A stretch of DNA of 64,000 nt from an uncultured virus (IMG/VR IMGVR_UViG_3300044295_000401) (Duplodnaviria; Heunggongvirae; Uroviricota; Caudoviricetes), in IMG/VR virus record IMGVR_UViG_3300044295_000401. One strand, written 5' to 3'. Position 1 is the stretch's first letter. Every line of letters starts with the position of its first letter. A program made the position numbers and the translations under genes. Under the pieces are notes generated by a model. It did no database searches, was not told the origin of the DNA, and saw nothing but the letters and a program-made list of their open reading frames with translations. This document shows positions 2,182 to 33,881 of this stretch, piece after piece.

Positions 2182-2379
2182 TCATAGCCATTCCGGTAAA
2201 TGATCTTTTTTAATAACTATTTTACTTAGCTTACTTTCCATTGTCCACCATTCTTGTTCTGTACCCCAATCGGTATAAGGATTTAAACAACGAATCCAAT
2301 ATTTATAACCTTGAATTCTAGTGATAACCCGAATTTCGCCTTAATGAAGGACATGATCTCCTTTTTTAAACTTGCTCAT
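2182..2379 (-). pseudogene. HLPEWL-tag family gene with one in-frame TAA (2341-2343)
   Basis: Manual translation: MSKFKKGDHVLH*GEIRVITRIQGYKYWIRCLNPYTDWGTEQEWWTMESKLSKIVIKKDHLPEWL*; same N- and C-terminal motifs as its paralogues. Confidence 0.7.
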
Positions 2380-3133
2380 TGAACCATTCCTTTACCGCGT
2401 TTTTGTAAGATTGAAGCGTAGTTCCTTGTAGTCCGGGTGCAGTATTAACTTCTAATACTACAGGATTATTATCTTTATCAATAACAATATCTACCGCACC
2501 AAAGTCAAGACCCAAAGTTTGTACAGCATTAATAGCAGCGAGATTAAGATCTTCCGTAACCGTAATACCTTCTCGCACAAATACCCAACCTTGCTCATAA
2601 CTTCGGATATATTTATTATATACAGAACTCTCTTGATAACCTCTACGTCTACGTTTTTCAACTACATCTATTACAGTACCATTAAACACATGAACTCTAT
2701 ATTCTTTTTCTTTACGAATATATTTAACATACAAAGGAGCAGCAACCAAATCATCTACAGTCTTAGCAATAACAATACCTTTACCGCTATTAGAACGAAG
2801 TAGTTTACGACAAAGAACAATACGATTATTGTTAATCCATTCTTTAGCTTGCTCAATATCAGTAGTAAACTCAGGTATTTTAATTCCACCCTCTTTCATT
2901 TTAATAAAGGCTGTTAGTTTATTACTAGCAACCTTTACAGCGTCAGGTTTATTAAGAATAGTAACTCTATCCAAGCTAAACATAGGATTAGAGTTACCCC
3001 AATTGAGTACAATCTTTTTACGACCATAAACAGGAGTAGATTGTTTTTTCATTATAGCAATAGGCGACAATGAACGAACTAATTCTTTAGCAGAATTACT
3101 ATATGATTTATAAGGAAGTACTTTAAGTTTCAT
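2366..3133 (-). CDS. ATP-grasp (RimK/glutathione synthetase-like) ligase
   Basis: Motifs NWG, ASNK, SGKGI, EYRVHV, GLDFGAVD, VLEVNTAPG. Confidence 0.85.
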   Translation of the reverse strand: MKLKVLPYKSYSNSAKELVRSLSPIAIMKKQSTPVYGRKKIVLNWGNSNPMFSLDRVTILNKPDAVKVASNKLTAFIKMKEGGIKIPEFTTDIEQAKEWINNNRIVLCRKLLRSNSGKGIVIAKTVDDLVAAPLYVKYIRKEKEYRVHVFNGTVIDVVEKRRRRGYQESSVYNKYIRSYEQGWVFVREGITVTEDLNLAAINAVQTLGLDFGAVDIVIDKDNNPVVLEVNTAPGLQGTTLQSYKNAVKEWFNEQV

Positions 3134-3142
3134 AATAATCCT

Positions 3143-4396
3143 TTAGTGTTTGGTTCCAGTTTTCTTTACCCAAAGAGATCCATCTTCATCAAGAAACCAA
3201 TCATCCATTGCGGCTTCGTTTTCATTAAAAGGATCATTACTATTATTAGCAATGATCTCATTTACTTTATTGATCTCTTCAATTGCAACTTTGTTAATTT
3301 CAGCAACAGAAGGAAGAGATTCTTTATCAAGTTTAATTTGTTGACGCGCCCCTTCTAAAGTAAACCCTTTCTTCATCAAAGACTTTTCTTCTTCGGTTAC
3401 TTGTTGATGTTCTGCTTCTGATTTAAAGGGGAAAACATTATTACGTTTATATACTTCTTCTTCCCACTTCTTCATTTCATCTTGGTAAAGAGTATCACTA
3501 TGTCCTAAATAGCTACGTTTAGTATAGCTAGGAGGAGTATAAACATCGCGGTTGGTTGTGTCAGTGTACTTTACAGTAAGTATAGGTTTACCAGTAAAAG
3601 GATCAATACGAACTAATGTATCTTCATTAACAGACTCTGCTTTACTAATGATAGTCAGTCCAAGATAAGAACAAGCATTTTTAATATCATTAAGTTTAGT
3701 AGAAAATACAAGACAATCAAGCTCTTTGATATATGCCGCACTAAGCGAAGCTCTAGTACGAAATACATCGAGAATGCGTTTACCATTGTTATCTCTACTA
3801 AAGATACCGCAAGCAAAGTATCCTTTAAGATCATCAATTAGATTTTGAATATCAGAAGGAAGTTTCATTACCTCATGTTCAAGATATTTATTAAGGATAC
3901 GTTCACTATCACAAGTAGAACGAATCTGATCTTGTATAGTATGATTACGAATCACTCCATTATGAACAAGAGAAGTATCGGCAACCAAATCAATAAAAGG
4001 ATGAGTGTTTGCAAACTCTCGTCCACTAGTTGCCATTCGTGTATGAAGAGTAATAGCAGTAAAGGTATCAGTAAGAGTACCAAAGCTATTATACTTTTCA
4101 ATAGGTTCGACATTATTTTCATCTTCCAATTTAACAAAGTCTTTGTATGACTCCTTCACTTGTTTAGTTATATTAGTATCAATCTTCTTACCCTTAGTAT
4201 ATTGATTACGAGTAACAAATGCTTCATCATTATACCACCAACGTTCACCGAATAGATTACCTCGATGATCGAGAGCAGCATAACCTAGACCATCGCTATT
4301 ACCCTCACTCATAAGCTCAGCCATTTGATGAATAAACTTATTAGCAAGTTTAGCTTTATCTTTCTTAATACCTGACATGATAAGTAGTCTGCACAT
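3143..4396 (-). CDS. class II (Ntn) glutamine amidotransferase
   Basis: N-terminal MC nucleophile, DGLG, HTRMAT, NTHPF, HNGVI, CDSE motifs. Confidence 0.85.
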   Translation of the reverse strand: MCRLLIMSGIKKDKAKLANKFIHQMAELMSEGNSDGLGYAALDHRGNLFGERWWYNDEAFVTRNQYTKGKKIDTNITKQVKESYKDFVKLEDENNVEPIEKYNSFGTLTDTFTAITLHTRMATSGREFANTHPFIDLVADTSLVHNGVIRNHTIQDQIRSTCDSERILNKYLEHEVMKLPSDIQNLIDDLKGYFACGIFSRDNNGKRILDVFRTRASLSAAYIKELDCLVFSTKLNDIKNACSYLGLTIISKAESVNEDTLVRIDPFTGKPILTVKYTDTTNRDVYTPPSYTKRSYLGHSDTLYQDEMKKWEEEVYKRNNVFPFKSEAEHQQVTEEEKSLMKKGFTLEGARQQIKLDKESLPSVAEINKVAIEEINKVNEIIANNSNDPFNENEAAMDDWFLDEDGSLWVKKTGTKH

Positions 4397-4411
4397 ATAT
4401 AAACTCCTTAA

Positions 4412-5869
4412 TTAAGCCGCTTCTTCTACAGTGATATGTTTACCATTTTGATCTTTAAACTTAGTAATACGTTGCTTGATATACTCAAGCAATTCATTAT
4501 CCAAGCCATAGTATTGACAAAACGTTTCTGCTTTATGCGCTTCAGTATCTACTTTAACATTCATGTTAGCAATTGTAGTAAGAATCTTTACCCAATTACT
4601 AATCTTCTCAAAGTTAGTAGAACCACTGTGAATACGAATCTCAATAGTTTGATGTTTGTTTAATGCCAACAAGTTAATACCGTTGTATCTACTATTACTA
4701 GTACCACCATTCAACGCAGCCCAAGCAGTATCAAAGTCTTCCCATTCGACTTTCTTAGAATACACAGTATCTTTAATACCATTAGAATCAATACCATCAA
4801 GGCGACTGCGGGGGTTCATAGCGTACAAGATACGTTGTGCTTTAAACAAATTATGATACACAACACTACGATCACGATGCCGCATATCAAGATGAACATG
4901 CAAACCACAACGACCACCTACACGACTTGAACCATTCTTATTAATAGCTTTCAATGCACGTTGTAGTACAAGATGAATCATAGCTTCGGGTGCAATGATA
5001 GTAAGTTCATGAGCATATTCAAAGCCAGGTACTTTACGAATACTACCATCATCTACTAAGCAAACAAAGTCTTGGACATTCTCTGCTTGCAATTCTTTAG
5101 CAAGATCATACTTATCTAGCTTGCTAACAAATTCAATTTCAACACCTACATGTTTAGCATCAGTCAAAGGTACTTTACGTTCAAAGATTTTTCTAAGGTT
5201 CTTAGCTTGTTGAAGTTCCAAAAAGGTTCCTCCTTCCATATGAATGAAATGATTATCTGAAATTTCAGGGATATAATATTTATATTCAGTACCTCGTAAT
5301 ACATCTTTGTATATGGCATCTCTACCTTGACCGCCTTTACCACCACCAACATACACTTTATACTTAGGAGATACAGGTAAACCATCGACAGAAAAAGTAC
5401 GCTCTTGATATTGAATATCTTTTAGTTGTTTACGATGTTCTCTAAGTTCAGCAAGAGCTTCGTTTTGTTTTTCAACAACAAGATCTTTAATACCTTGTTG
5501 TTTATTACGATCGTATTCAAGTTCAACATCTACTTGATATGATTTAACTCCATTGTATTTAGTAAGGCCGGAACTATCATCAATGAATTGGTTAAACAAC
5601 TTCCATTCACGATCCGCAGTAATGTGAATTACCTTTTTGTTTTTGCTGATAGCAAGTTGAACATTCAATTTTTTACGTGCATTACGCAAACACTGTTGTA
5701 GTTTTTGTGCAGCAACAAGTAGATCAGTATCTTCTGTTTCAGAATCTTCTTGAATTTTAAGAAGATCGCCACAGCCTTTAATTTTATTAATAGTCAATAG
5801 CTTTTGGTTAATTTTATTTTGATTAAAGTTATAATTGGTAACAGTTTTAACTTTGTACTTCAACGTCAT
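4412..5869 (-). CDS. putative amidoligase (COOH-NH2 ligase family)
   Basis: GVEIEF, DGSI, CGLHVH, RYNGIN, TIEIRIH motifs. Confidence 0.8.
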   Translation of the reverse strand: MTLKYKVKTVTNYNFNQNKINQKLLTINKIKGCGDLLKIQEDSETEDTDLLVAAQKLQQCLRNARKKLNVQLAISKNKKVIHITADREWKLFNQFIDDSSGLTKYNGVKSYQVDVELEYDRNKQQGIKDLVVEKQNEALAELREHRKQLKDIQYQERTFSVDGLPVSPKYKVYVGGGKGGQGRDAIYKDVLRGTEYKYYIPEISDNHFIHMEGGTFLELQQAKNLRKIFERKVPLTDAKHVGVEIEFVSKLDKYDLAKELQAENVQDFVCLVDDGSIRKVPGFEYAHELTIIAPEAMIHLVLQRALKAINKNGSSRVGGRCGLHVHLDMRHRDRSVVYHNLFKAQRILYAMNPRSRLDGIDSNGIKDTVYSKKVEWEDFDTAWAALNGGTSNSRYNGINLLALNKHQTIEIRIHSGSTNFEKISNWVKILTTIANMNVKVDTEAHKAETFCQYYGLDNELLEYIKQRITKFKDQNGKHITVEEAA

Positions 5870-7226: not shown

Positions 7227-7302
7227 TGGTCGGGCAAACGGGAATTGCACCCGCGACCCCCCGCTTATAAGACGGATGCTCTAACTGCTGAGCTATTGCC
7301 CG
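7227..7302 (-). tRNA. tRNA-Ile (anticodon UAU), CCA encoded
   Basis: Reverse complement CGGGCAA TAGCTCAGCAGTTAGAGC A TCCGT CTTATAA GCGGG GGTC GCGGG TGCAATT CCCGT TTGCCCG A CCA folds as a 76-nt cloverleaf. Confidence 0.9.
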
Positions 7303-17656: not shown

Positions 17657-19929
17657 ATGCACGTAAACGGCATATATGCAGGACAGGGCGATGGCTCTAC
17701 ATATTTTGCCGCTAAAGAAGCCTCTGAAACATCTTCGATTTTGATGGCTAAATCAAAATCATTCTACAACGTATTAGAAGCTAATTTTTACTTAGAAAAA
17801 TTAGCACGTATGTGGAGAACGTAAACTTTATGCGTTCTATAAACCTGTTCTAATTGACTTGGAACTCCAGAAGTGGACAACAAGGCGGAAGCGAAAGCAC
17901 CGTGAACGACTAAATGAATGGGCGCTTTAAAATTAAAGCGATGCGATAGTCTGAACTATCCTATAACAAAAGAAGGGATAGAGAAAAATCCGAAGTGGTT
18001 TTTCCCCTCTATTAAGAGGAGTAACAAATTGATCATGGTTGTTTCGAGGTCTCTGTTGGCGGCGGTCATCAAATTAGTTTTACTGGTGAACAAGAAGAAC
18101 TAGTTAGTCTTCATATTAATCACTTTCGTAATCTTGGTGAACACATTTTTAACATGGTTACTTCTTCACGTCCATCAATGGATGCACGAGCTATTAATAG
18201 TGACTATAAATCTATCTCACAGACATATCTTGCTAATGGTATTTTAGATTACTATATGCGAGAAAAAAACCTTGAAGATGCATTAAAAACTGCAGTAAAG
18301 ATGGCAATTATTCTTGGTGCCGGTTTCATTAAAATGGAATGGAATGCTACTGCAGGCGATGTATACGATATTGATGAAAACGGTATTGAAATTAAAGAAG
18401 GTGAAATTGAATTCACTAATCTATCTCCATTCGATGTGGTGTTTGATGGTTCAAAAGAATCACATAAATTAGATTGGTATCTTGTTCGTACATTTAAAAA
18501 TCGTTTTGATTTAATTGCTAAATATCCTGAGCTTAAAGACCAACTTATGGCAATTCCTTCTAAATCCGATGCTGGTATTTACAGAATGGCTCTTCTTTCT
18601 AATGACGTAACAGATGATATCCCTGTTTACGAATTCTTCCACAAAAAAACAGAAAGCATGCCTCAAGGGCGTTATATGCTTTTTGCTGATACAAATGCTG
18701 TAATGATTGATACTCCTCTTCCTTACCGGATTATGCCTATTTTCCGCGTATCTGCTGGTGAAATCTTAGGTACCCCATATGGTTATTCGCCTATGTTTGA
18801 TGTATTCCCTATTCAACAAGGTATTGATGGTTTGTATTCTACGATTTTAACAAACCAATCCGCTCTTGGTGTACAAAACGTTTATGTTCCTCGTGGTGCG
18901 GATATTGCTGTAGATAGTTTACATGGTGGTATGAATATTATTGAAGGTAATGCTAAACCGGAACCTTTAAACCTAACAGCAACCCCTCCAGAGATCTTTA
19001 AATTCCTTGAGATGCTTATTGAAGCAGCTGAAACTATTTCTGGTGTAAACTCTGTTGCTCGCGGTCAACCACAAGCTTCACTTAAATCTGGTAATGCTCT
19101 TGCACTAGTACAATCAATGGCACTACAATTCGTATCTGGTCTTCAAAATTCTTATGTACGCTTAATTGAAGATAGCGGTACTGCTATTATTCAAATTCTT
19201 AAAGATTATGCTAATACTCCTAAAGTCGCTGCGCTTGTTGGTAAAAACAACAAAATGCTTCTAAAAGAATTTACTGGAGATGATTTAAATTCTATTAATC
19301 GCGTTGTTGTAGATGTTGGTAATCCCCTTTCTCGTACAATTGCAGGCCGTGTTCAAATGGCTGAGCAAATGATGCAAATGGGTATTATTAAAGACCCAAC
19401 ACAATATTTCCAAGTATTAAATACTGGACGTATTGATGTAATGTATGAGGGTGATATTAGTCAACAGCTTCTTGTTCGTCAAGAAAACGAATGGTTAGCT
19501 GAAGGTAAAAATCCTTTAGTTGCTCCTACCGACCTCCATGCTTTTCATATCCAGGAACATCGTTCTGTATTAGATGATACTGATATTCGTTTAAATCCTG
19601 ATATTACACAAATTGTAATGGATCATATTGAAGAACATTTAAATAAACTTGCAAATACTGATCCAAGATTATTAATGCTTACCGGTCAACAACCATTACC
19701 TCCACCACAAATGGGAGGAATACCTCCTGGTGGACCACAAGGCATGCCTCAAGGTGGTCCAGAAGCGCCTCCACAGGGAGGCCCAAGCCCGCTATCGCAA
19801 TCACCAGCTGGGGCTGAGGTAATTAATGGGCCACAAGGACCACAACATTTACCTAAGCTACCAAAAGTAAATCCTTCTCTTTTACCCAATCCTGAACTTC
19901 AAGAACAAAGTTTAGGTAATTTGAGATAA
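17657..19929 (+). CDS. portal protein, two exons (17657-17822 + 18032-19929; 687 aa spliced)
   Basis: Follows terL; exon join T|AT gives ...ARMWRTYHGCFE... in frame with track ORF 18154..19929; LSPFDV and ISGVNSVARG segments, P/G/Q-rich tail. Confidence 0.85.
17823..18031 (+). mobile_element. group I intron (209 nt, no ORF) in the portal gene
   Basis: P1 AGAACGU / GCGUUCU with U.G at the splice site; P7-type GACUA / UAGUC; terminal G; removal restores the frame. Confidence 0.88.
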
Positions 19930-29337: not shown

Positions 29338-29790
29338 ATGCCTAATTTCTATGCTAAAAGTGAAGCGGTACAAAATGCACAATTAAAAGTGCAAGAACTT
29401 TGTCTCCGTCTTGCTATTACTGGTAATGCCACGCCAGCGAGTGTGGTTGTCTCTGTAGATGATCCTGCTGTTCTTTTTCTAAAGACACAAGGGGTTGATA
29501 AAATCAGTGCTGCACTTGATGCTGCTGATGGTTCACCTTCTTTTGTTGCACAAAATGACGGTAATGGTCTTTTTTCTGCAATGATCAAAGTAGGAGAGCC
29601 TATCGGCAAGGTTCTCTGTGCTCAACTTGTACGCCGTACTGCTCATGGTGTTGACACTGTAAAGCTAGCTGATAGTGATGGTATTACCGCTGCTGGTGAT
29701 AAAATCGTTCTCGACTGCGATACTGGTGTTGATCTATCTGCTGCTAACCTCGATGCTTGCCTTATGGTTAAGTACGTGGTAGCTGAATAA
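29338..29790 (+). CDS. putative capsid-associated (decoration) protein
   Basis: Between scaffold and major capsid genes. Confidence 0.45.
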   Translation: MPNFYAKSEAVQNAQLKVQELCLRLAITGNATPASVVVSVDDPAVLFLKTQGVDKISAALDAADGSPSFVAQNDGNGLFSAMIKVGEPIGKVLCAQLVRRTAHGVDTVKLADSDGITAAGDKIVLDCDTGVDLSAANLDACLMVKYVVAE

Positions 29791-29817
29791 TTAATTCTTT
29801 AGAAAGGAAAATATAAA

Positions 29818-32800
29818 ATGGCCGCTAATAATACATATGCTGGTTCTTTAAATGCGATGTTTAAATAAGTCTTGAACATCTGAGGTAAAGCCCTCCCTCT
29901 ACGCATAGAGAGGAAAAGAACGTGAATTGCTGGAAGCCCTTATAGGGTAATCAGCAGCCAAGCTAGATAAAATGATTATCTAGAAGGTTCAGAGACTAGA
30001 TTATACTTAGATTATCCTTATCGCTTAGCGAGTTGGAGATAAAAAAAATGATAAACAAGGACAAACGTAGCCTTATTTTATCTATGATTTTAGGTGATGG
30101 TTGCCTTCATTATGTTAAACGTAATGATAAATTATATGGTGCTATTACATTAGATCATGGAAATGAACAATCTGATTATATTGCATGGAAATGTAATATA
30201 GTTAAAAAGATTTTTGATAAAGAAATAAAATTACGTCCAGGTCATAATGGTAAATCAATACAATTTTCTGTTTGCTCTAAAAAATTAAGAGCTTGGAGAA
30301 AGTTTTGTTACCCAAATAACAAAAAATCAATTAAAAAGATTTTACCTTTTATACAACACCCCGAATTTGCATTAGCAGTTTGGTTAATGGACGATGGTTA
30401 TGTTCAGTCTAGTTTTAATAAATTAGCTTCTGGTGAAAAGAAAAATTATGGAGCTAGGTTTAGAATATATAGCTGTGATCAATCTTTAGATGATCACGAG
30501 TATATTAAAACTTGGTTTAAAAGTAATTTTAATTTAAAAGACGGAATAAAAATAAGCAAATTTTTTGATAAAAAACAACAAAAACACTACCCATTTATTA
30601 AGTTCACTCAAACTGATTCTTTAATAATATGGGAAAAAATTAGAGAAGTTGTTTTAAGTTTAAAAAGTATGCAACATAAATTCCGTTACATCGAAGAAAT
30701 TTATCAATCTAAGAAATCACAGCGCGTTCCTGAATAAATAATTCAGATGATATAGTCCGATACCCGGAGTAATCTGGGAAAACACTATGAAAGAAAACTA
30801 TGCCGACAAAATTGAGGATCTAATTCCAGATGGAGTGAAGCTTCTTAATCTTGTTAAGTTTATGCCAAAGGATAAACAACCTGGTAATCTTTACCATTAA
30901 TGTTGGTGGTAAGTAGGTAAAATCCTACTAATTGATAAAAAAAAATCAATTATAAATCAACTCTAATTGACTTGAACCTCCGAAAATCCCGGACAACAAG
31001 GCGGAAGCGAAAGCACCGTGAGAGACTAAACGAGTTGACAATAAGTTAAACTTATTGATGCGATAGTCCGAACTACTGAAATAGGAAAAGGTAAAACAGT
31101 AGAGCTAAACAGAAATGATTTAGCCAGAATAAAAATTCTGTAACAATTGCAACCTGTTATCCTTGGTTTAGAACATGGAGTTACCTTCGCCTCATCAGAC
31201 GAAGATGCGTTGACTTATAAGTTAAGCGCCTAATTGTAGGAATATAATTAGCAAATCGAGGAAAAAACCTGGAAAGCTAATTGAAAGTATGTTATAATAG
31301 AAGTTATGAAAAAGTACGGTACAATCTATATAATAAAAAATAAATTAAATGGTAAAGTCTATATTGGACAAACCACTCAATCTGTTTTTGTTAGATGGAA
31401 TGCCCATAAACGTTTAAATAACACTATTATTTCAAAAGCCTTAAAAAATAATATTAATAATTTTGAGTTTATTGAGTTTTTAACTTGCTTTTCTAAAGAA
31501 GAACTTAATTTTTGGGAAAAAGAATTTATTAAACAGTTTAATTCTATTGCTCCATTTGGTTATAATCAAACTACTGGTGGTAATGAATTTTCATTTAATA
31601 ACGAAATTAAAACAAAAATGAGTTTAATTAAAAAAGGTAAAGAAAGTAAAAATCATATTGTCGGTGTTATAGCTAAAAACATTGAAACTAACAATATTGA
31701 ATATTTTGATTCATTAAAATCCGCAACTAAAAAGTTAAATATTTCAAGAAGTAGTATTTTAAAAAGTTGTAAATATAATATTATTAGAAAAGGTTACTTA
31801 TTTTCATATGCCAATCAGAGCGGAAGTGATAAAAATAAAAGCTTGTCACACGCGCAGAGACTAGAGAGTGAACCTGTTAATACAGAATATAATCTCTCCA
31901 CGAGTCCTCGGTTCCCTAAAAAATATATGGATAACAAAGATTTAATACTTAATTTAAGTAGATCTTTAACACCATATAGTATATCTAAAAAATTAAATTT
32001 AGATAAATCTATGGTATGTTATTTTATCCATTGTTTTGGGAAGTAAGATAGTCCGATCCATTAGAAATAATGGGTTTACAGGATAAAGAGCCTGTAACAG
32101 CCTAATGCTGAAATTGTTAACTTAAACGCTCCAGTAGCTGGTGTAATCAAAGATGCTCAAGTAAAAGGTTATCCCCTTGTACTTCGTTCTGTCCTTGGTT
32201 ATACTGCTGCTAGCCGCGCTGCACAGGGCGGAAAGCAAGCTTTCATGGATGCTACCAAGTATCTAGTAAGCAACATGCTTCGTTCTGTAACCAAGAAGCT
32301 CGAAATCGAGATGTTCTATGGTCAAATGGGTTATGGTGCCGTAGCTTCTAACTCAAGCACTGTGGTAACCATTCAGACTGCTGAATGGGCTCCCGGTATT
32401 TGGGCTGGTGCCGAAGGCATGCCTGTTGAAATTCGTGATAGTTCAGGTGCTGTGTCTAAAGGTGAGTACAAAATTACCGCCGTTAACATGGACAGCCGTA
32501 CTATTACCCTAGACGCCGATCCAGGCACACTCTCCTCTGGCGATGTGATCTGGCACAAAGGCGCTTATGGTAACGAATTCCCTGGCGTTCACAAGATCCT
32601 TACCAACTCTTCAACCCTATTCAACATTAACGCTGCTCAGTTTAACCTCTTCAAGGGTAACCAATATCCTGCCGGTTCTGCTGCGCTAAGCTTCAACAAG
32701 CTAAACCTTGCTGCTGCTCGTGGTGTTGAAAAAGGTCAAGATGGTAAGCTCATCGCCTTTGTTAACCCCCGTGCATGGTCAAACATGATGAACGATCAAG

Positions 32801-33129
32801 CTGCTCTCCGCCGCTATGATGGTTCATACAGCAAAGAAAAGGCTGAAGTAGGCGCTAAGTCTATCCTCTTCCATAGCCAGAACGGTGAAATCGAAATTCA
32901 CCCTTCTATCTATATCAAAGAGGGTTATTCTTTCCTACTCAACCTTGAAGACTGGATGCGCGTTGGTTCACAAGACGTTTCCTTCAAGCGTCCTGGCCAA
33001 GGCGAAGAGTTCTTCCGTGATCTTGAGAACTCTGCTGGTTATGAGCTTCGTCTTTTTACTGACCAAGCTCTATTCTGCCTTGCTCCTGGTAAGTCTACAC
33101 TTATCACTGGCATCGTAAATGCTGCTTAA
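29818..33129 (+). CDS. major capsid protein, four exons (29818-29862, 30790-30897, 31150-31210, 32117-33129; 408 aa spliced)
   Basis: Exons join in frame: MAANNTYAGSLNAMF|KENYADKIEDLIP...GNLYH|QPVILGLEHGVTFASSDEDA(F)NLNAPVAG...AFMDATK...; AGAAAGGA SD; follows scaffold; strong terminator after. Confidence 0.85.
29863..30789 (+). mobile_element. group I intron 1 of the capsid gene (LAGLIDADG ORF)
   Basis: P1 GAUGUUU / GAACAUC with U.G; GAAUUGCUGGAA, AAUCAGCAG, UCAGAGACUA and GAUAUAGUCC core elements; terminal G. Confidence 0.9.
30048..30737 (+). CDS. intron-encoded LAGLIDADG homing endonuclease (two motifs)
   Basis: LSMILGDG and LAVWLMDDG motifs; GGAG SD before ATG at 30048. Confidence 0.85.
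   Translation: MINKDKRSLILSMILGDGCLHYVKRNDKLYGAITLDHGNEQSDYIAWKCNIVKKIFDKEIKLRPGHNGKSIQFSVCSKKLRAWRKFCYPNNKKSIKKILPFIQHPEFALAVWLMDDGYVQSSFNKLASGEKKNYGARFRIYSCDQSLDDHEYIKTWFKSNFNLKDGIKISKFFDKKQQKHYPFIKFTQTDSLIIWEKIREVVLSLKSMQHKFRYIEEIYQSKKSQRVPE
30898..31149 (+). mobile_element. group I intron 2 of the capsid gene (252 nt, no ORF)
   Basis: P1 UUACCAU / GUGGUAA; GUUG can pair with 3' exon CAAC (P10); GAGACUA / GAUAGUC; 31-nt identity with the portal intron. Confidence 0.88.
31211..32116 (+). mobile_element. group I intron 3 of the capsid gene (GIY-YIG ORF)
   Basis: P1 GCGU / GCGC with U.G; P10 UAAGUUAA pairs with 3' exon UUAACUUA; GCAGAGACUA / AAGAUAGUCC; terminal G. Confidence 0.88.
31306..32046 (+). 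CDS. intron-encoded GIY-YIG homing endonuclease
   Basis: TIYIIKN..NGKVYIGQT..RW..H, E..FI, GYNQT; NUMOD1-like FDSLKSATKKL; TGTTATAAT upstream. Confidence 0.85.
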   Translation: MKKYGTIYIIKNKLNGKVYIGQTTQSVFVRWNAHKRLNNTIISKALKNNINNFEFIEFLTCFSKEELNFWEKEFIKQFNSIAPFGYNQTTGGNEFSFNNEIKTKMSLIKKGKESKNHIVGVIAKNIETNNIEYFDSLKSATKKLNISRSSILKSCKYNIIRKGYLFSYANQSGSDKNKSLSHAQRLESEPVNTEYNLSTSPRFPKKYMDNKDLILNLSRSLTPYSISKKLNLDKSMVCYFIHCFGK

Positions 33130-33161
33130 TTATTATTTTTAATAATTAAATAGTTAATAAG

Positions 33162-33196
33162 AGGGGGGACTAGATTAATTTCTAGTCCCCTTTTTT
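33162..33196 (+). terminator. Rho-independent terminator after the capsid gene
   Basis: GGGGACTAGA / TCTAGTCCCC stem followed by a T-tract. Confidence 0.85.
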
Positions 33197-33233
33197 ACTT
33201 TTTTGCTCTTTTTTGTGTATTTTTATTTGATTT

Positions 33234-33248: not shown

Positions 33249-33881
33249 GTGAAGAATTGTAGTAAATGTAAAATTTTACAACATACTGATAATTTTTATC
33301 ACGATTCATCTAAAAAAGATGGTCTAAGCTCGTATTGTAAACCTTGTAGAATTAAAAATTCTAATAAAAATAGTAGTTTAAATAAAGACTATATTAAACA
33401 ATATAAAGCTAAATATTATCAACAAAATAAAAAATTAATAATTCCTAAAGTTAAAAAAACTAAAGAAGAAAAACGGCTTAAAAAGAAAGAAATTGCTAGA
33501 CGTTTTTATTTAAAGCATAAAGAAAAGATTAGTAAAAAGAATAAATTATATCGTATCCAACATCCTGGACCAAGAACACAATTAAAACAATGGAAAATAA
33601 ACAATCCAATTGAGGGACAAGAATACGAGGAAAAAATTAAAAATATCCGTTTAAAAAAGAAACTTGCTAAAAATGCAAAACGTAGAGCGGATAAATTAAA
33701 AAGAACTCCCAAATGGGCGAATTTAAAGGCAATTAAAGAATTTTATATGAATTGTCCAAACGGTTATCATGTTGATCATATCATCCCACTTAAAGGGAAA
33801 AATGTTAGTGGATTACATATTTTAGAAAATCTTCAATATCTGCCTGCTATTGAAAATTTAAAGAAAGGTAATCGGGTATAA
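33249..33881 (+). CDS. free-standing HNH endonuclease
   Basis: CSKC..F..D....DGL...CKPC; TPKWA; HVDHIIPL...GLH...NLQ...N..K. Confidence 0.85.
   Translation: MKNCSKCKILQHTDNFYHDSSKKDGLSSYCKPCRIKNSNKNSSLNKDYIKQYKAKYYQQNKKLIIPKVKKTKEEKRLKKKEIARRFYLKHKEKISKKNKLYRIQHPGPRTQLKQWKINNPIEGQEYEEKIKNIRLKKKLAKNAKRRADKLKRTPKWANLKAIKEFYMNCPNGYHVDHIIPLKGKNVSGLHILENLQYLPAIENLKKGNRV

Follow-up and report, generated by a model that had tools for sequence, protein, structure and literature searches.

The major capsid gene of a tailed phage (Uroviricota; Caudoviricetes) known from the uncultured-virus record IMGVR_UViG_3300044295_000401 of the IMG/VR database is interrupted by three inserts, all of which are group I introns. 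It occupies positions 29818 to 33129 of a 64,000-nucleotide (nt) stretch of DNA, hereafter the window. The open reading frame (ORF) starts at 29818, preceded by a ribosome-binding-like GGAA, passes through three AT-rich inserts and then continues as a long open frame to 33129. Joining the four exons (29818-29862, 30790-30897, 31150-31210 and 32117-33129) yields 1227 nt, or 408 codons plus TAA, with the sole stop at the end. The introns, of 927, 252 and 906 nt, lie between codons 15/16 (phase 0), between codons 51/52 (phase 0) and within codon 72 (phase 1), giving the following arrangement (aa, amino acids; P, paired helices of the ribozyme):

29818..29862, + strand: capsid exon 1, 45 nt, codons 1-15; tblastn with six of nine uninterrupted homologues, junction refined by junction search
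29863..30789, + strand: group I intron 1, 927 nt; partial Rfam match, covariation with the L030 intron, terminal G at 30789
30048..30737, + strand: LAGLIDADG homing endonuclease gene in intron 1, 229 aa from ATG; Pfam LAGLIDADG_2; between the P7 5' strand and P3'
30790..30897, + strand: capsid exon 2, 108 nt, codons 16-51; 100% identity to residues 16-51 of homologues P0001-P0004 and P0010
30898..31149, + strand: group I intron 2, 252 nt, no ORF; P1, P2, P2.1 and P3-P9.2; family covariation and minimum free energy (MFE) fold
31150..31210, + strand: capsid exon 3, 61 nt, codons 52-71 and base 1 of codon 72; tblastn, junction search
31211..32116, + strand: group I intron 3, 906 nt; covariation with three same-site relatives, terminal G at 32116
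31306..32046, + strand: GIY-YIG (+NUMOD1) homing endonuclease gene in intron 3, 246 aa; Pfam, PHROG
32117..33129, + strand: capsid exon 4, 1013 nt, remainder of codon 72 to the stop; phrog_14242 at 6.3e-11, 2495 homologues

When nine uninterrupted homologous proteins were compared with the 64-kb window by tblastn, exons 2, 3 and 4 were matched separately by all nine (30790-30897, residues 16-51; 31150-31209, residues 52-71; 32119 onwards, residues 73-407), and exon 1 (29818-29865) was matched by six, the other three being more distant and having longer N-termini. The uninterrupted 408-aa homologues, with ~92-70% identity, are collinear with the four exons, and the protein encoded by exons 2 and 3 is 100% identical to intact homologues. 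In a junction search, in which every donor/acceptor pair was scored against the nearest intact homologue, introns 1 and 3 allowed equal-score shifts of up to 3 nt resulting from repeated bases, and the coordinates proposed in an initial annotation of this DNA were among the top solutions; with a T before the 5' splice site and a G as the final intron base, exactly one solution per intron remained, identical to the one proposed. The exon and intron coordinates, the lengths and the 408-aa frame of that annotation are thus borne out by the homologues, the junction search and the single stop of the joined frame. The same holds for the P1 U.G site and terminal G that it assigned to each intron (junction solutions and P1 helices; G at 30789, 31149 and 32116), for the LAGLIDADG gene, absence of an ORF and GIY-YIG gene that it assigned to introns 1, 2 and 3 (Pfam matches and ORF list), and for an in-frame stop within 1-8 codons of each intron 5' end, which can be read directly from the sequence at codon 2 of intron 1 (AAA TAA), codon 1 of intron 2 (TAA) and codon 8 of intron 3, split codon included. 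According to the accessible text of PMC3984707, such early stops are usual in group I introns of protein genes and are read as a form of ribosome stalling that allows the ribozyme to fold.

The initial annotation had also named the gene as that of the major capsid protein, and this identification holds. Exon 4 matches phrog_14242 'major head protein' (6.3e-11), and its translation, used as a protein query, retrieved 2495 relatives, of which the closest have 408-409 aa and are 92-80% identical. The product has an HK97-type capsid fold; in an AlphaFold model of homologue P0001 (43 aligned sequences), the mean predicted local distance difference test score (pLDDT) is 61 and the core is confident. 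A profile sequence search of the PDB with the capsid returned no relevant relative.

In all three introns, the last base of the 5' exon is a U paired with a G in P1 with the internal guide sequence, and R and S motifs are present in a P/Q/R/S core that consists of P3 around P4-P6, a bulged P7 pseudoknot and P8. The three cores belong to three different families. The core motif of intron 2 occurs in at least 97 IMG/VR stretches, 43 of which, including capsid intron 2 itself and a portal gene intron described below, were aligned. The RNAalifold consensus of this alignment has P3 around P4-P5-P6, followed by P8 and P9.1, and with P7 added as a pseudoknot 96.6% of the alignment cells pair, with compensatory changes in 26 of 38 pairs (shuffles, 0/500; slid controls, 36-42%). 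The MFE fold of intron 2 contains the canonical helices, P1 is seen both in this fold and in the Rfam alignment, and the intron searched alone gives a weak whole-model match to Rfam Intron_gpI (20.7 bits, E value 0.0028).

For intron 1, we propose P1 at 29856-62/29874-80 with its U.G pair at 29862/29874, P3 at 29918-24/30723-29, P4 at 29928-32/29952-56, P5 at 29937-40/29944-47, P6 at 29963-70/29976-83, P7 at 29992,29994-98/30753-58 and P8 at 30730-35/30741-46. Compared with the same-site intron of related locus L030, 91.9% of cells pair (slid controls, 35-48%) and 18 of 64 pairs show compensatory changes, among them 4 of 7 in P3 and 5 of 6 in P8, and the P1 guide sequence follows a synonymous exon change. 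P4-P6 and the R element match Rfam Intron_gpI locally (29925-30000, 40.2 bits, E value 2.6e-9), and the P/Q pattern recurs in 20 viral loci, 12 of which have Rfam group I matches of 67-102 bits. The first candidates for P3', directly after the R element, did not pair and were discarded; the P3' backed by covariation sits past the ORF. For intron 3, the proposed helices are P1 at 31207-15/31220-29, P2 at 31230-35/31246-51, P3 at 31257-61/31906-10, P4 at 31269-72/31815-18, P6 at 31826-29/31846-49, P7 at 31857,31859-63/32049-54, P7.1 at 31864-68/31894-98, P8 at 31912-21/32034-42 and P9 at 32058-63/32068-73. Aligned with three same-site relatives, they pair in 96.4% of cells (slid controls, 32-51%), with compensatory changes in 17 of 69 pairs, and the P1 guide co-varies with a synonymous exon change (GCG/CGC vs GCC/GGC). 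A member of the same family that lacks an ORF (L029:3215-3470, 256 nt) scores 52.8 bits, above the Rfam gathering score. Subgroup IA introns have the extra helices P7.1/P7.2 between the P7 5' strand and P3'. At this position, intron 1 holds its ORF, intron 2 holds nothing, and in intron 3 P7.1 is supported (100% paired, compensatory changes in 2 of 5 pairs) and P7.2 is not.

The product of the intron 1 ORF, with two motifs in its translation and a match to PF03161 LAGLIDADG_2 (59.3 bits against a cut-off of 25, 5.9e-16), is a putative homing endonuclease. The intron 3 ORF matches PF01541 GIY-YIG (43.7 bits against 22.6, 3.5e-11) and a PHROG homing endonuclease family (6.4e-23), and its NUMOD1 match (22.1 bits, 1.7e-4) falls just below the cut-off of 22.8. 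This frame runs from the P5 loop via P4', P6, P7, P7.1, P3' and the P8 loop and ends at the P8 3' strand, before the S element. It thus spans the ribozyme core as well as two peripheral loops, so that ~35 codons also serve as catalytic RNA. The GIY-YIG frame ends soon past the R element in related introns that are inserted elsewhere (L018, L028, L031 and L050). Intron 2 has no ORF of at least 70 aa. A promoter scan found a TG-extended -10-like site before the GIY-YIG gene, yet the region has fewer promoter-like sites than shuffles and we make no claim for it.

Relatives of the capsid gene were found at 75 IMG/VR loci (L001-L075), of which four lack the N-terminal part. Among the 71 assessable genes, 47 are uninterrupted and 24 are interrupted, the latter including several near-duplicates as well as L001, whose sequence is that of the window. 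The three intron sites of the window, referred to here as A, B and C, are empty in close relatives such as L002 (94% aa identity); sites A and B are occupied also in L030 and L020, and site C in L013, L015, L016 and L023. The closest intronless allele, L002:2358-3584, differs from the window at the last base before sites A and B (29862 and 30897): its codons there end in a synonymous C, whereas those of the intron-bearing allele end in the T that the P1 U.G pair requires. Site C shows no such difference, with T in both alleles. A U|...G solution exists for 29 of the 30 junctions that could be cleanly resolved in the window and at 14 related loci. The junction search merged neighboring introns in L009, L020, L034 and L043 and in the first gap of L051/L052; mini-exons without exact borders were found in L009, L020 and L051, and none was resolved in L034 and L043.

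Every interruption lies before ~codon 85, and none was seen in the other ~320 codons. In the numbering of P0001, there are at least 12 distinct sites: 15/16, inside 19, 28/29, 43/44, 47/48, 51/52, 53/54, 57/58, 61/62, inside 62, inside 72 and 80/81. Three introns per gene are found in the window, L013/L015/L016, L029, L050 and L020, each with a different combination of sites, and L009 and L051/L052 may also hold three. We tentatively suggest that the first ~85 codons are a clade-wide landing zone for group I introns, with at least 12 sites in codons 15-81 and at least five independent three-intron lineages, in which constraint or selection beyond chance is a possibility, although one to which we give only limited credence. 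We rejected conservation as the sole cause, because conservation in codons 1-86 exceeds that of the remaining codons only slightly (0.70 vs 0.65 for nucleotides and 0.74 vs 0.65 for protein) and the equally conserved later blocks 133-144, 157-168 and 217-228 are intron-free. A late mRNA that is translated very heavily may tolerate introns solely in the vicinity of its 5' end; alternatively, the clustering may reflect an endonuclease arms race of co-infecting freshwater phages over the N-terminal segment of the capsid.

The region or part of it is present in ten DNA runs from eight freshwater metagenome studies, three rows of which may be the source sample; the run search listed no RNA run with the region. 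Contigs of four further freshwater runs, each from a different study, bridge five of the six exon-intron junctions with 0 differences; because the junctions are unchanged in four other studies, the arrangement is not due to chance. No intronless joined form of the capsid gene was found in the contigs of these 4 DNA runs. The assemblies of other runs break within introns, at the intron 2 core shared with the portal intron, and one loose contig end at this core continues into portal-intron sequence, which accounts for the breaks. The only joint in the contigs of the 4 runs, in one contig of run X7, skips 102 nt within intron 2 (30911-31014), approximately the P2/P2.1 hairpins, with 22 letters on the shorter side, which is below the trust limit; the L030 intron at the same site, of 204 nt, lacks these hairpins too.

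Terminase and portal genes lie upstream of the capsid gene. Three further features belong to its surroundings:

17823..18031, + strand: group I intron in the portal gene, 209 nt, no ORF; intron-2 family by alignment; exon 1 17657-17822, exon 2 18032-19929
33158..33197, + strand: terminator-like hairpin and T run with a 17-pair stem, 3' of the capsid gene; consensus match only
33249-33881, + strand: free-standing HNH-like endonuclease gene; phrog_1035 endonuclease VII at 1.7e-17; in a 21.5% GC (guanine plus cytosine) patch directly past the capsid terminator

The portal junction is in phase 1 (T|AT), and the core of the portal intron is a close paralog of that of capsid intron 2. At related loci, the two portal parts are contiguous in 72 of 76 cases and separated by an insert of ~205-210 nt in four. 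A search of Rfam with the portal intron gave no group I match, only a weak chance-level manA match, and its identity therefore rests on the family alignment and the comparison with related loci. The statement of the initial annotation that the two main head proteins, capsid and portal, would need four splicing events is supported by the tblastn of the capsid, the HK97 fold and the comparison of portal loci. The gene preceding the capsid gene encodes a highly charged protein of 333 aa, which from its composition we take to be a scaffold. The nearest phage record in a search for cultured relatives is Silvanigrella phage CP017838, with 30% identity in the capsid and 27% in the terminase. Elsewhere in the window, a gene cluster on the - strand (2366-5869) has matches to amidoligase families and to an ATP-grasp family, 'ribosomal protein S6 glutaminyl transferase' (4.2e-81), and a tRNA gene (63.9 bits) lies at 7230-7302 (-). 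Among the contigs collected for their intron motif, an unrelated viral one has a Glutamine-II riboswitch match at L296:356-412 (58.1 bits, gathering score 33).

We favor a model, which we consider very probable, whereby three mobile group I introns, best read as a tolerated selfish load and no regulatory device, have colonized the HK97-fold major capsid gene of this uncultured tailed phage from freshwater. The model builds on the gene architecture, exact junctions, covarying ribozyme core, intact endonuclease domains, capsid fold and presence/absence polymorphism observed here, and it predicts both splicing and homing. The late transcript would have to lose all three introns via the standard group I pathway, in which guanosine would attack after the U of the P1 U.G pair and the exons would then be ligated past the terminal G, giving a spliced mRNA of 408 codons with a layout identical to that of the intronless alleles in related phages. 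The LAGLIDADG and GIY-YIG enzymes presumably cleave the intronless capsid alleles that co-infecting relatives carry, and the introns would spread through repair. The ORF-less intron 2, separated from its neighbors by just 108 and 61 nt, could therefore travel by co-conversion or with help in trans; by analogy with collaborative homing, the free-standing HNH-like protein could act in trans for it.

Several observations weigh against this model. Splicing is deduced from the DNA sequence. All three introns fall below the Rfam RF00028 gathering score of 50 bits, with 20.7 bits for intron 2, 40.2 bits in a partial match for intron 1 and no match for intron 3; searches of the whole window and of 29700-32300 at E values up to 10 gave no group I match, and only small sub-regions matched. 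The gathering score is a curated cut-off that does not define the RNA, and the Rfam model is disrupted by ORF inserts, so that the large ORFs explain the low values of introns 1 and 3; the explanation is not full for intron 2. Relatives that lack an ORF do reach the score (52.8 bits in the intron 3 family, and 67-102 bits at 12 of the 20 loci with the P/Q pattern of intron 1). For introns 1 and 3, the window's own sequence was the source of the drawn structures, and the tests covered only two and four sequences, respectively, which means that the contrast with the controls is partly built in, and we therefore place weight on the compensatory changes. The P7.2 proposed for intron 3 paired in only 43.8% and was rejected. 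The first intron of L028 has no U|...G solution in the junction search; this 284-nt insert after 'QPG' (L028:4779-5065), the sole exception among the 30 junctions, is perhaps misplaced by the aligner or an insert of another kind. On the protein side, the N-terminal 107 residues of the structural model, where the introns sit, have a pLDDT below 50, and a Pfam search of the capsid found no family above its cut-off, the best being SU10_MCP with 13.4 bits against 24.1.

Four other explanations were considered. The introns could be kept as weapons whose endonucleases cut the intronless capsid genes of co-infecting relatives and so favor this phage in mixed infections; an intron endonuclease of phage PhiPA3 is reported to aid competition among co-infecting phages (accessible text of PMC11620839). 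Potential targets exist in the 47 of 71 assessable related genes that are intronless, the relatives were found in the same type of habitat, and a third, free-standing HNH-like endonuclease gene adjoins the 3' end of the capsid gene. The sequence does not, however, separate such a benefit from pure selfish spread, with which this idea is compatible, and we hold it to be rather unlikely. The initial annotation had proposed instead that splicing is a timing or condition gate on head assembly, so that capsid and portal synthesis would be delayed until four ribozymes have folded and reacted. Both the capsid gene, with three introns, and the portal gene, with one, would indeed require splicing, and a group I intron that was domesticated to sense a metabolite has been described (accessible text of PMC3984707). 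Yet close relatives encode the same proteins in uninterrupted genes, the occurrence of 0-3 introns at sites that differ per lineage fits a mobile parasite and does not fit a conserved regulator, we found neither a ligand-binding element nor a switch, and the early in-frame stops are, according to the same source, usual for group I introns. With intron content thus variable among lineages, the gate finds no support and we consider it improbable.

The initial annotation had further noted that exon 2 could be skipped to give an alternative capsid. The arithmetic stands: exon 2 has 108 nt and is flanked by phase-0 introns on either side, so that the frame survives skipping. The functional isoform finds no support: a 372-residue capsid without residues 16-51 would lose 13 columns that are invariant across 43 homologues, the intron-bounded exons of relatives differ in length and phase and thus offer no conserved skippable unit, and a by-eye reading shows no pairing between the intron 2 guide sequence and the end of exon 1, or between the P10 partner of intron 1 and the start of exon 3. 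By analogy with the title of the report on phage Twort discussed below, exon-2-skipped products may arise as a by-product; a functional isoform is unlikely, and on the evidence of this gene we would put its chances very low. Lowest of all, we rank the idea that the interrupted gene is a decaying pseudogene or an assembly chimera. That assemblies of other runs break inside introns might be taken to favor it, but the breaks sit at the core shared by intron 2 and the portal intron, with one end reading into portal-intron sequence, and contigs from four other studies carry the same junctions with 0 differences. Moreover, the frame is perfect, exons 2 and 3 have 100% protein identity to intact homologues, and no second capsid gene was seen among the ORFs of the window. 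Colonization by selfish introns therefore remains our preferred explanation.

A close parallel is orf142 of Staphylococcus phage Twort, in which Landthaler and Shub, in 1999 (PNAS 96:7005), reportedly described three self-splicing group I introns in one gene together with exon skipping. As in orf142, three closely spaced group I introns, a mix of endonuclease-bearing and ORF-less ones, interrupt one phage protein gene and leave a short internal exon; unlike there, the interrupted gene encodes the major capsid protein of an uncultured freshwater phage, the introns represent three core families, and splicing is predicted. Capsid gene introns are also known. The mycobacteriophage LittleE has one in its major capsid gene (Pope et al. 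2013, PMC3706429), and the accessible text of that paper cites a capsid gene intron of lactococcal phage Tuc2009. The LittleE intron likewise is of group I type with a U at the exon end, a G at the intron end and a LAGLIDADG-like gene, and relatives of LittleE carry a related ORF-less copy in another structural gene, as the portal gene does here; in LittleE, however, the intron is a single one, its endonuclease is encoded on the opposite strand and splicing was established by reverse transcription PCR, whereas the three described here have theirs on the sense strand and are known from DNA (accessible text of PMC3706429).

In Bastillevirinae phages, DNA polymerase and large terminase genes are split by two or three group I introns, which resemble the present case in that there are several introns, up to three per conserved gene, whose presence or absence varies among relatives; those genes are replication and packaging genes of Bacillus phages, and the word 'capsid' occurs 0 times in the accessible text (PMC11878797). 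Faustovirus E12 has a viral major capsid gene similarly broken up by several introns, with complex splicing and group I-type introns, but it is a giant virus of amoebae with another capsid fold (accessible text of PMC6247863). Both capsid gene introns and three-intron phage genes have thus been published already. In a literature search that covered few subscription journals, we found no report of three group I introns in the capsid gene of a bacteriophage and, within the same scope, none of a comparable multi-site intron hot spot. Group I introns in a capsid gene are a known kind of selfish element, here at an unusual density, and the hot spot is the part worth following.

Gene callers render this locus as a 294-aa capsid fragment (32245-33129) and two 'endonuclease genes', so that capsid-based classification and counting go wrong unless the introns are modeled; the risk concerns an abundant group of freshwater phages that carry such genes. 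Our finding leaves knowledge of the group I intron mechanism itself unchanged. It indicates, instead, that the virion gene which a phage expresses most highly is able to carry three ribozymes and two nucleases. Finally, we note that the capsid genes of these phages provide a natural series of 0-3 introns at a minimum of 12 sites and from three intron families, which bears on how endonucleases and introns pick and share their targets.

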